From positions 2,912,001 through 2,976,000 of the forward strand of contig OZ250173.1 in assembly GCA_965238075.1 (NCBI GenBank): DNA of 64,000 nt. The letters run 5' to 3'. Both the position numbers and the translations under genes were made by a program. A model generated the notes under the pieces. It did not search any database. It saw only the letters and a program-made list of their open reading frames with translations, and had not been told where the DNA came from. Shown one piece after another: positions 28,755 to 36,346 of the stretch (the stretch's first letter is position 1; each line of letters begins with the position of its first letter). This DNA comes from Candidatus Entotheonellaceae bacterium. Lineage in GTDB: Bacteria > Tectomicrobia > Entotheonellia > Entotheonellales > Entotheonellaceae.

Positions 28755-28783
28755 TTGACCCCCGGAAAGCCCGTTGCTAGAAT
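28755..28783 (+). promoter_or_regulatory. Putative sigma-70 promoter for the B12-binding/meaB/UGSC operon
   Basis: TTGACC-N17-TAGAAT with an extended -10 TG, 60 nt upstream of ATG 28844. Confidence 0.65.
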
Positions 28784-28843
28784 CGCCGCCGCTGGGAGCC
28801 CGGCATCCGTAGCCAAGGCGCCATTAGGGGGAGCAAAAACGGC

Positions 28844-29251
28844 ATGACAACAGCTCAGAGGATCCGCGTTCTGATTGCCAAGCCCGGTCTGGATGGCCAC
28901 GACCGCGGCGCCAAAGTTCTCGCCCTCGCCTTGCGCGATGCAGGGATTGAGGTCATTTATACCGGTCTGCGGCAACAACCGGAGCAGATCGCCGCGGCAG
29001 CCATCCAGGAGGATGTTGATGTCGTAGGGTTGAGTTGCTTGTCGGGGGCGCACAATGTCCTCTTTCCCCGCGTGGTGGAATTACTCAGGGAGCAGGGCGC
29101 CGAAGATGTCCTGGTGGTTGGTGGCGGCACGATTCCAGAACACGACATCCCAGCGTTGCAAGCTGGAGGCGTGCAGGCCATATTTGGCCCCGGCTCGTCA
29201 ATCGCCGATATTGTCGACTACATTCGCGGACATGCGCCGCAGCGGTCATAA
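28844..29251 (+). CDS. Stand-alone cobalamin-binding domain (acyl-CoA mutase small-subunit type)
   Basis: [12 protein letters not shown] (DxHxxG), [15 protein letters not shown] and IFGPG. Confidence 0.93.
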
Positions 29252-29291
29252 CGCTGCCTTGCAGGAGAGCAAACCGGTCTGAGGTACGTGC

Positions 29292-30245
29292 ATGTCTGTG
29301 GAACTGGTGGAAAAAATGCTCACCGGTGATCAACGGGCATTGGCACGGCTCGTATCAGCGGTGGAAAGACAAAGTGCCGAAGTCCCGGAAATCATGCAGC
29401 GTATTACCCCCATGCTTGGGCACGCGTATTGTATCGGCATCACCGGGCCGCCAGGCGCGGGCAAAAGCACCATCACTGACCGACTGACGGCGTATGCCCG
29501 CCAACAAGGCAAGACCGTTGGGATTATCGCCGTTGACCCCACAAGCCCCTACTCCGGCGGCGCCATACTGGGCGACCGCATCCGCATGCAGCAACATTAC
29601 CTCGACGCGGGGGTTTACATCCGCAGCATGGCGTCCCGCGGCCACCACGGCGGCTTGTCCCGTGCCGCCAAAGGGGTCATTAAACTTCTCGATGCGTTCG
29701 GCAAGGACCTGATCATCGTTGAGACGGTTGGCGTTGGCCAGACTGAACTCGATATCGTGGCCGCCGCCGATACGACGGTCCTGGTCCTGGTGCCTGAAAG
29801 CGGCGATGCCATCCAAACCATTAAGGCCGGCATCATGGAAATCGCCGACCTGTTCGTCATCAACAAGGCCGACCGCGATGGTGCCGAGCGCCTGCAGCGC
29901 GATCTGCAAATGATGCTGCACGTCCGCCCCGCTTCCGACGGCTGGTGTCCCGCCGTTCTCAGCACCCAAGCCCACAAAGACATCGGTATCGTGGAACTCT
30001 ACGAGGCGATTGCGGCCCATCGCCACAAGTTGTCGGCGACCGGCCACTTGGCGGCGCGCCGCCAACAGAACCGGCGACAGGAACTGCTCGATTTGCTTCA
30101 GCAACAATTGATGGCAACCTTGACGGCTCAATTCGAAGACGGCGAAGCCCATTCGGGGCTGCTTGAACAGGTGGAAGAGGGCACGGTGGATCCGTATACA
30201 GCAGCGCAACAGATGCTGGTGGAAAACGACGGTCTGTGGCGTTAA
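29292..30245 (+). CDS. meaB: MeaB/ArgK G3E GTPase (acyl-CoA mutase chaperone)
   Basis: GITGPPGAGKST, AVDPTSP..GGAILGDRIRM, ETVGVGQTE and INKAD. Confidence 0.95.
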   Translation: MSVELVEKMLTGDQRALARLVSAVERQSAEVPEIMQRITPMLGHAYCIGITGPPGAGKSTITDRLTAYARQQGKTVGIIAVDPTSPYSGGAILGDRIRMQQHYLDAGVYIRSMASRGHHGGLSRAAKGVIKLLDAFGKDLIIVETVGVGQTELDIVAAADTTVLVLVPESGDAIQTIKAGIMEIADLFVINKADRDGAERLQRDLQMMLHVRPASDGWCPAVLSTQAHKDIGIVELYEAIAAHRHKLSATGHLAARRQQNRRQELLDLLQQQLMATLTAQFEDGEAHSGLLEQVEEGTVDPYTAAQQMLVENDGLWR

Positions 30246-34638: not shown

Positions 34639-34651
34639 GGCGACTTCCTCG

Positions 34652-35110
34652 CTAACGGGTTTTCGAGACGTGCGCCGCGATGCTCAGGTTTTCCTGATCC
34701 AGAATGCGGGGCGCGAGACGGCGGTAAAACGGCAGCAGCCAATACCGCACGCCGGGCAGAAGAAACTTGCCGCGCAGACGATTGACGACCGTGCAGCGGT
34801 GGGCATCAATCGGCAGAACGGTGAAAGACTGGCTGTGTGGAAACCAGTCCTTGCCGTCTTCCTGGAGTTCTCCCCACGCCACGTGATAACGGCGATACAC
34901 ACGAATGCGCGCGACCCGCAGGCGCCGATACAAGCCGTAGACGTTGTGCCGGATGGGAACGCACTGGCCCACCTTCGTCACTGGCTCGGCGCAATCCACG
35001 TAGACATGGAAGCGGTTCAGGCGAAGGAGACAGCGCAGATCCGACATCCAGTCCCAGACCGCCTCTGCCGGGGCCTCGATCTGCAAGCGCCGCTCGCATT
35101 CGTAGATCAT
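34652..35110 (-). CDS. SRPBCC (START-like) family protein
   Basis: N-terminal IEAPAEAVWDWMSDL signature, 152 aa. Confidence 0.7.
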   Translation of the reverse strand: MIYECERRLQIEAPAEAVWDWMSDLRCLLRLNRFHVYVDCAEPVTKVGQCVPIRHNVYGLYRRLRVARIRVYRRYHVAWGELQEDGKDWFPHSQSFTVLPIDAHRCTVVNRLRGKFLLPGVRYWLLPFYRRLAPRILDQENLSIAAHVSKTR

Positions 35111-35149
35111 TGCTCAGTCCGATTTGCGGTGACGGGCACCGGCCCATTG

Positions 35150-36346
35150 TCAACGGGCAAGGCCGAAGGCTACCGCCTTCGCCGCGGGATCCTCGCTGGC
35201 CTGCATATACTCGCCAACCGCGGGGATGAGTTGGCCGATGGCCATCTCGCCCCAAAACCAGACGTGCAAGTCAGGCTCGCTCGTTGACGGCTTTTGCGCC
35301 ATGCGGGCTTCGTAATAAAACGCCTTGAGATCGTCGACGCAGTAGCGGATGAACTGCGGCAGCGACACGTTGGCTGGCCGCTCCTTCATGTCCACCTCTT
35401 CGCCGCGACTGTACGCCTCAAGGAACCGGACGAGGCCGCGCCAGCGCCGCTGCGGAATGCCACTGAGGCCCACGGCGGTGCGGCCATCGTGTTCGTCCAC
35501 CCAGCGCTCGTAAAACGCGCGCAGCCCGGCAATCTCATCGGCGGCGTCCGCGGTGGATTGGGCGCCGTTACGCGTGACGCCGGACGATTGGGGCAACAGG
35601 TCTGGAATCTCTTCCTCGGGGAAGTCCGCCAGGAGCGGCCCCTCCGGCTTCTCAAGGAGTTCAAATGCCGCGGCAATGATCCGGTGCTGTAGATCGGCAT
35701 CGTTCGGCTTGCCCAGAGCAAAGCCAAAGGGGTAGGGGACAAACAACGCCCGCGGCGGCTTCACCTTCTCGACGTGCTCGCGCACCATGGCGAGGCTGAC
35801 GGTAGTGAGACCAGCGGCTTCGAAGACCCGTGCCAACACACACACGGTGTGCGTGCACAGGGGTCAGGTGGGGGTTAGAAAAACAACCTCGGCGCCCTCG
35901 TTCTTGAGTCGCTGTGCGACCTCGGGACCGGTTTCTTCCATGATGCGCCGCATGTCGCGAAGGGCTCCCATGAACGAATAGGCGTTCGGCGCCAAGCTGC
36001 CAACGACGCCCCGTGCGGTCAGCTCACGCAGCCGGTCGAGCGGAAAGGTGACGTTGAGGTCGCGGTAGATGGCAGTGTGGTCGAAGCCGATGCTGGTGTG
36101 GCTCTGCAAAATGTCCGTGGCTTTGGCGTTCGAGGGAATGACGCGGTACGACGTATCGCCGCCCTTCATGTCGGCGGCGAACGGCTTGTCGTCGTGCAAG
36201 TGCAGGCCCGCCGAGGTGACCAATGCCAGGTTGCTGTGTTTCAGTTCCCGGCTCGGCGGCGTCCATGGTGTATCGTCGGGTTCCAGGCAGGGAAAGGATA
36301 ACAGGACCTGGCGCAACACGGCGCTCAGTTGTTCAAGCCTCGGCAT
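35150..36346 (-). CDS. PrdB/GrdB-like reductase selenoprotein B with C-terminal extension (398 aa; Sec161 at TGA 35864-35866)
   Basis: The N-half has ALVTSAGLH, GDTSYRVIP and DLNVTFPLDRL. It continues in frame as VFLTPT-U-PLCTHTVCVLARVFEAAGLTTV..PPRALFVPYPFG. A SECIS-like hairpin follows the TGA. Confidence 0.88.
35827..35861 (-). promoter_or_regulatory. Bacterial SECIS-like hairpin (PrdB/GrdB-like gene)
   Basis: Minus strand CCTGTGC-ACGCACAC/CGT/GTGTGTGT-TG-GCACGGG, about 15 bp including G-U pairs. The loop G lies 19 nt after the TGA. Confidence 0.72.

Follow-up and report, generated by a model that had tools for sequence, protein, structure and literature searches.

Two convergent operons, each with a selenoprotein gene, lie between positions 28,755 and 36,346 of a 64,000-nucleotide stretch (the window) from a Candidatus Entotheonellaceae bacterium (assembly GCA_965238075.1, contig OZ250173.1, positions 2,912,001 to 2,976,000), whose genome, designated G000, is one contig of 3.35 Mb and 93% complete. 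The plus-strand genes encode a B12-binding mutase subunit, MeaB, a UGSC-family selenoprotein, its partner protein TDGLP, and a crotonase-family protein; the minus strand encodes ApaH, a long PrdB-like selenoprotein, a 152-residue protein, and a fused electron-transfer flavoprotein (ETF). The original prediction combined these genes into a single selenocysteine (Sec)/B12/acyl-coenzyme A (CoA)/ETF pathway. The gene set is not co-located beyond ordinary synteny, and we consider it highly probable that the locus holds three independent modules that occur together in only one genus. In the first, the B12 subunit and MeaB would serve a split mutase whose large subunits sit 0.2 and 1.5 Mb away; the second would be the UGSC-TDGLP pair, and the third the long PrdB-like selenoprotein acting on its own. 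The two selenoprotein genes are likely chance neighbors.

Selenocysteine and the two selenoprotein families

Both in-frame UGA codons very probably encode Sec, given the conservation of the UGA, covarying hairpins, and the Sec machinery in the genome. This machinery, on which the original prediction depended, is present: selA and selB lie side by side, selD and tRNA-Sec are also found, and selA, selB, and selD score above cut-off. The UGA of the PrdB-like gene is in frame within U-x-x-C at 80/80 loci (the best 80 of 124 found; 75 lie outside the genus, 72 of those in Chloroflexota). For the UGSC motif, TGA occurs at 70/70 sites in 98 loci scanned with a pattern that also permitted Cys, and each of 65/65 UGSC matches in 14 further genomes holds one TGA. 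Proteins that databases list with C in place of Sec were not counted as Cys homologues, because the judgment could draw only on protein records. The hairpins downstream of the two codons are more stable than expected from their coding content, as only 0.7% (UGSC) and 1.5% (PrdB-like) of 3000 synonymous recodings of the same codons are as stable. At pair +16/+24 of the PrdB-like hairpin, 34 of 69 distinct sequences have A-T, 34 have G-C, and one has G-T, and the loop G at +19 is present in 69/69. At pair +18/+24 of the UGSC hairpin, 43 of 60 distinct sequences have G-C and 15 have C-G, and 59/60 have the loop G at +20. These counts come from related sequences, and the events are not independent. 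The UGSC codon is kept in four congeners, where synonymous changes prevail on both sides of it; after the UGA, synonymous changes are at least as frequent as replacements in 4/4 congeners compared. If the UGAs were true stops, each gene would be two short open reading frames (ORFs) or a pseudogene. Alternative starts do occur downstream of each UGA, and databases list the gene halves as separate proteins, as was foreseen when the genes were first noted to be ones that gene callers would split. Nevertheless, the codon occupies the same motif position at all 80 and all 70 sites, the hairpins covary, the machinery is complete, and the family models extend across the UGA, which makes termination extremely improbable.

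UGSC and TDGLP form a genetically linked pair, in agreement with the partnership first proposed from the sequence. The window UGSC protein has the (U/C)GSC motif and scores 145.8 bits against NF041046 (cut-off 125) and 183 bits against PF24696 (cut-off 25, E 6e-54), placing it in the UGSC-containing family (PMC1976440, PMC2398784), a family that ranks with the most abundant orphan selenoproteins of aquatic metagenomes (PMC2398784). Of the best 80 among 596 metagenomic loci for the partner, 73 have a UGSC gene next to it. Moreover, at 21 of 64 UGSC sites the frame stays open into the partner for over 400 codons; this genome has one such site (L007:6745-8394), a natural fusion read through the UGA with the variant motif U-G-T-C. 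Fusion in both orders was considered and rejected; the alignment puts the UGSC half N-terminal, so only the UGSC-then-partner order is claimed. By eye, TDGLP aligns with the 'Unknown_1' domain fused to UGSC in Fig. S1A of PMC2398784; in the window, UGSC and partner are separate genes behind meaB, which differs from that fusion. Both selenoprotein families are in print as orphans and the UGSC-partner fusion was published in 2008 (PMC2398784); the window genes are new members.

The partner family is large (7953 matches among 8000 candidates scored), and proteins 64–76% identical to the window copy exist. The TDGLP model is confident, with a predicted local distance difference test (pLDDT) score of 94. 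Its pocket holds the conserved polar residues D31, N76, T111, N144, R149, D167, K176, C180, E183, E257, and H258, a set that, in the model, looks like an active site; the only cysteines kept are C82 (76/87 matches) and C180 (79/87). Fold searches with this model gave no clear match among solved folds. In Foldseek, the top row is a subunit of class I fumarate hydratase (E 4e-4, TM 0.24); VIA gave a best Z of 5.7 across 90 residues and, for the fumarase row, Z 4.5 with a root-mean-square deviation (rmsd) of 5.2 over 188 aligned residues. We take the modeled likeness to Fe-S hydro-lyases as a lead only, and the empty fold searches, here and for the PrdB-like protein, do not demonstrate a new fold. 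Profile comparison of the partner with GrdE revealed no likeness (0.17%). By sequence search, neither UGSC nor the PrdB-like protein has a relative among solved structures.

Profile alignment suggests that UGSC is distantly akin to the Sec-bearing segment of GrdB and PrdB. In hhalign, the UGSC Sec segment matches the PrdB-like family with a probability of 79% and 89% (two column settings) and GrdB with 59%, in each case with U-x-x-C in register; the controls went no higher than 2.7% for 13 unrelated families and 0.3% for two reversed alignments. The NCBIfam GrdB model also matches UGSC over this segment (E 4e-4). A Trx-like (thioredoxin-like) fold has been suggested for UGSC (PMC2398784), whereas our comparison points to the Sec segment of GrdB/PrdB. 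In hhalign, thioredoxin scored 0.3% and a peroxiredoxin set 0.2%, both control sets being thin. An automatic atlas name, 'Thioredoxin family protein', was dismissed as evidence, and atlas searches otherwise gave unnamed clusters. In the accessible text of the open literature on UGSC and GrdB, we found no statement that the two are homologous.

The UGSC-TDGLP pair is a predicted two-part redox enzyme. Because the UGSC Sec segment aligns with the PrdB-like family and GrdB, and by analogy with GrdB/GrdE (PMC13188914), we propose that UGSC would be a minimal 'selenoprotein B' domain whose Sec96 attacks a substrate that the partner binds and activates. Cys99 might then resolve the selenenyl adduct. 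Thiol or thioredoxin-type reductants, rather than the ETF of the window, might reset UGSC, since a thioredoxin-reductase-like gene recurs at 5/93 partner loci and an ETF gene occurs at 0/80 metagenomic ones. We give this catalytic scheme an even chance of being right.

The long PrdB-like selenoprotein belongs to the marine PrdB-like family and stands alone, with no PrdA/GrdE partner nearby. Its most likely place is among the marine 'PrdB' selenoproteins, a set first catalogued in 2005, of which 42 genes were reported as 'proline reductase PrdB' in the Sargasso Sea set (PMC1088965) and 235 in the Global Ocean Sampling data (PMC2398784). It shares with that family a GRDB domain, the UxxC motif, and abundance in marine and sponge-associated genomes; relative to the published description, it is a long, 398-residue form with an unnamed helical C-terminal domain. 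A homologous Sec-bearing segment is found in D-proline reductase PrdB/PrdA and in glycine/sarcosine/betaine reductase GrdB/GrdE (enzymes described in PMC13188914), but the window protein falls below the cut-offs for both. It scores 159 bits against TIGR04483 (equivalog cut-off 300) and 43.8 bits against TIGR01918 (cut-off 65.45), and is longer by an extra domain than the approximately 240 residues of PrdB; selenoprotein B of glycine/sarcosine/betaine reductase has approximately 435. Its motif is U-P-L-C-T-H-T, versus U-G-T-C-N-R-C in true GrdBs, and UxxCxxC is absent. All three copies of the PF09338 pyruvoyl proprotein (PrdA/GrdE) in the genome stand beside full-length GrdB genes at least 0.35 Mb away, and no PrdA/GrdE was seen among the recurring neighbors, clustered and inspected by eye, at the 75 PrdB-like loci outside the genus. 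The original prediction invoked PrdB/GrdB-type reductive C-N cleavage for this protein; since it fails the tests for D-proline reductase PrdB, that chemistry is not directly transferable. The structural model (pLDDT 95) has a helical C-terminal domain without a Pfam name. Over residues 32-249, it resembles only generic Rossmann/periplasmic-binding sandwiches (best Z 8.2, rmsd 3.3–4.4), and the C-terminal domain is barely covered. The protein may act like a selenoprotein B through U161 and C164, with the C-terminal domain possibly serving as the substrate-binding part.

Other PrdB-like loci have neighbors of their own. Upstream of the long PrdB-like gene, the opposite strand carries a gene for cob(I)alamin adenosyltransferase at L121:3317-3907 and 28 similar loci; these 29 of the 75 loci are all in Chloroflexota, and the adjacency is probably clade synteny. 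In three genomes of one genus (L042:7239-14733, also L040 and L041), a distant long PrdB-like paralogue (about 38%) follows MaoC/FAS1-type dehydratase genes. Downstream of it in L042 are boxC, boxB, and a benzoate-CoA ligase gene, and boxC/boxB-like genes are likewise in L041, a possible substrate lead for that distant clade.

Gene neighborhoods across genomes

The B12 subunit and MeaB are, by family assignment, ordinary housekeeping accessories of a split acyl-CoA (methylmalonyl-CoA-type) mutase. The genome has a stand-alone B12 subunit in a single close copy, a single meaB, and, as the original prediction proposed looking for, mutase large subunits elsewhere: two, both without a B12 domain, at 1.48 and 3.16 Mb, with the window locus at 2.94 Mb. 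MeaB has one match in each of 16 other phylum genomes. The second large subunit (L012:6076-7692; G000:C1:3155093-3156745) has the motifs TTRIFSG and EYMAQKEW, compared with RQYAGF and EYIARGTY in the first. Judged by motif rules for such mutases, the second may act on a substrate other than methylmalonyl-CoA, and both large subunits would share the single B12 subunit of the window. Both window proteins score above cut-off as parts of the known accessory operon (B12 small subunit, epimerase, MeaB); the downstream genes vary by genus (PrpD family, an 80-residue ORF, UGSC-TDGLP, crotonase). Among 17 phylum genomes, the slot after meaB holds UGSC and its partner in seven (two genera), a deleted remnant in one, a contig end in two, and other genes in seven, five of which have a PrpD-family gene there. 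In G006, a crotonase orthologue (80% identical) follows meaB, prpD, and an unnamed ORF of about 80 residues (orf80), without UGSC. This ORF (L055:9452-9694 and orthologues) follows meaB or meaB-prpD in six family genomes; it has no Pfam match and did not turn up in the present genome.

The full two-operon layout is intact in 5 of the 17 phylum genomes, namely G000 and four of its five congeners. The congeners keep ftsH, GAPDH, an enolase-family gene, aat, and trmL alongside it, at about 85–99% identity. Because these unrelated housekeeping flanks are conserved equally with the layout, its conservation in the genus is plain synteny. The 152-residue ORF is present in four congeners. In the remaining congener, G004, the first 24 UGSC codons are fused to the second half of the partner by a deletion that removed most of UGSC and half of the partner (L029:9381-9699, joining UGSC codon 24 to about partner codon 180). 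This genome also lacks the 152-residue ORF at the locus and has ~6.5 kb inserted between the crotonase and ETF genes; it retains the B12 subunit, meaB, crotonase, ETF, and the PrdB-like gene, which shows that the UGSC-partner pair is dispensable in one congener. The G007 orthologue of the partner (L031:8997-10074) occupies two reading frames, the result of either a frameshift or an assembly error.

Outside the genus, none of the 11 genomes from other phylum genera (62–95% complete) showed the layout. PrdB-like orthologues (66–69%) occur in three of these genomes and fused-ETF orthologues (62–71%) in five, with no other locus gene beside them in stretches of 2–18 kb. The original prediction held that adjacency conserved in no relative would mean chance juxtaposition; strictly, four congeners keep the layout, whereas the wider samples did not show it. 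At the 75 PrdB-like loci outside the genus, no gene for ETF, MeaB, the B12 subunit, ApaH, or the 152-residue ORF lies within 6 kb; UGSC with TDGLP occurs at two and a distant crotonase at six. The 80 metagenomic partner loci have no meaB, B12 subunit, mutase, ETF, PrdB, or GrdB gene; crotonase is found at three and a PrpD-family gene at four. In 14 Dehalococcoidia genomes that have all three genes, meaB lies at least 131 kb from any UGSC, and the PrdB-like gene at least 22 kb from UGSC and at least 403 kb from meaB. Finally, if the five UGSC and five GrdB/PrdB-family genes of this genome were placed at random, about 8% of placements would bring one pair within 5.3 kb; the remaining four UGSC copies lie 70–411 kb from any GrdB/PrdB gene.

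Joint or separate function

A joint pathway is unlikely because the layout is confined to one genus with housekeeping synteny, is broken in G004, and was not seen in wider samples. In its most inclusive form, both selenoproteins would carry out reductive cleavage with electrons from the ETF, and the product would pass to crotonase and the B12 mutase for processing. The parts are chemically compatible, and the layout, with its tight overlaps, persists in five genomes. However, the genes are on opposite strands, one congener has broken the layout, no ETF gene accompanies any of the 75 PrdB-like loci, ETF orthologues stand apart from the locus genes in five genomes, and the locus itself has neither a mutase large subunit nor PrdA/GrdE. 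Gene context largely refutes such an integrated system, which we regard as very improbable. A narrower proposal, less implausible but still doubtful, is that the plus-strand operon alone is functional, with a UGSC-TDGLP copy recruited into propionyl-/methylmalonyl-CoA metabolism and the minus-strand operon unrelated. Here, reductive cleavage of a C-S or C-N bond by UGSC-TDGLP would leave a carbon skeleton for crotonase and the B12 mutase to process. This proposal draws on the order B12 domain, meaB, (orf80), UGSC, TDGLP in the seven genomes of two genera; the promoter is shared as well. In related genera, the same slot is taken by the PrpD-family gene, once with the crotonase orthologue after it, and three of these genomes have a likely epimerase (a glyoxalase-family gene) before meaB. 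Gene order here is inherited in blocks, though, since the upstream priA is syntenic with meaB in most family genomes. Furthermore, 7 of the 17 genomes have meaB with no UGSC following, G004 lost the pair but retained the other genes, the G007 partner is frameshifted, and the meaB link is missing at 80/80 metagenomic loci and in 14/14 Dehalococcoidia genomes. We see only a slim chance that this paralogue is a new type of Se-dependent reductive lyase in a methylmalonyl-CoA mutase accessory operon of two Entotheonella-related genera, feeding a propionyl-/acrylyl-level CoA ester into B12 metabolism; in such a lyase, a pared-down GrdB/PrdB Sec domain would act together with a partner for which solved folds offer no clear match.

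The reading as three separate modules, which we prefer, has several points against it. The best evidence is the two-genus link itself: in 7/17 phylum genomes, the UGSC-TDGLP copy that follows meaB is 60–66% identical and stands behind a conserved promoter. In addition, only 38 of the 80 metagenomic partner loci span at least 6 kb, these loci are paralogues (44–58%) and not orthologues, the PrdB-like loci are not independent because 72 of 75 are from Chloroflexota, and several comparison genomes are only 62–82% complete. The alignment of UGSC with GrdB covers only 66–84 columns and uses a thin GrdB profile of seven sequences.

Features of the window and the genome selenoproteome

All of the genes, both in-frame UGAs, both hairpins, and the 14-nucleotide overlap of the original prediction were recovered by the ORF list, family scans, and hairpin analysis, and are collected in Table 1. 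The crotonase and ETF genes overlap tail-to-tail by 14 nucleotides (32848-32861), where no terminator was predicted; apaH also overlaps the start of the PrdB-like gene by 14 nucleotides.

Table 1. Features of the two convergent operons (window coordinates)
Feature	Position	Strand	Remarks
Candidate sigma-70-type promoter of plus-strand operon	28755..28783	+	10/12 consensus matches
Stand-alone B12-binding small subunit of split acyl-CoA mutase	28844..29251	+	TIGR00640, 170 bits (cut-off 57)
meaB, MeaB GTPase chaperone of mutase	29292..30245	+	TIGR00750, 347 bits (cut-off 241)
UGSC-family selenoprotein, 188 residues	30306..30872	+	U96-G-S-C99; PF24696, NF041046 above cut-off
In-frame UGA of UGSC gene, very probable Sec codon	30591..30593	+	GD-U-GSC
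Selenocysteine insertion sequence (SECIS)-type hairpin of UGSC gene	30604..30624	+	Loop G at +20 from UGA
TDGLP partner protein, 363 residues	30922..32013	+	No Pfam/NCBIfam match
Crotonase-family protein	32061..32861	+	PF00378
Fused ETF beta-alpha, 596 residues	32848..34638	-	PF01012 twice, PF00766
152-residue ORF, likely SRPBCC/polyketide-cyclase fold	34652..35110	-	Pfam below cut-off, E 0.0095 and 0.044
Long PrdB-like selenoprotein, 398 residues	35150..36346	-	U161-P-L-C164; extra helical C-terminal domain
In-frame UGA of PrdB-like gene, very probable Sec codon	35864..35866	-	PT-U-PLC
SECIS-type hairpin of PrdB-like gene	35836..35854	-	Loop G at +19 from UGA
apaH, housekeeping Ap4A hydrolase	36333..37172	-	TIGR00668 above cut-off

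Two assignments held only in part. A promoter scan found 2 candidates against 1.9 expected, so the plus-strand promoter alone is not above chance, but its hexamers, TTGAC-N17/18-TA(G/C)AAT, are kept in 8/8 aligned genomes from two genera. The SRPBCC label of the 152-residue ORF has Pfam matches, but these are below cut-off. Metatranscriptome contigs from four runs span 30/30 bins of 26000-39500 and the flanks too; they are strandless, give no level, and may contain DNA. Elsewhere in the window, a protein at 26339-27409 is best matched, below cut-off, by archaeal-type (type II) GAPDH models, and two short ORFs at 12262-13119 resemble, by eye, pieces of an IS630-type transposase. The accessible part of PMC12858407 contains nothing on the genes described here.

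The small genome encodes a rich selenoproteome. In addition to the five UGSC genes, it has two short-domain PrdB-like genes and three GrdE+GrdB pairs with one grdA (G000:C1:598869-601402, 1385057-1389829, and 2596046-2598555). The locus illustrates how annotation pipelines split two genes at the UGA. Its lasting value is general rather than special to the window, as the claim of a multi-operon pathway fails the neighborhood tests: UGSC now has a near-obligate partner with a confident model and is probably a distant relative of GrdB/PrdB, so that its function can be put to the test. As to its substrate, the association with meaB in two genera offers a modest lead; if the recruited-lyase proposal were true, it would be the first substrate clue for a very abundant orphan selenoprotein family.

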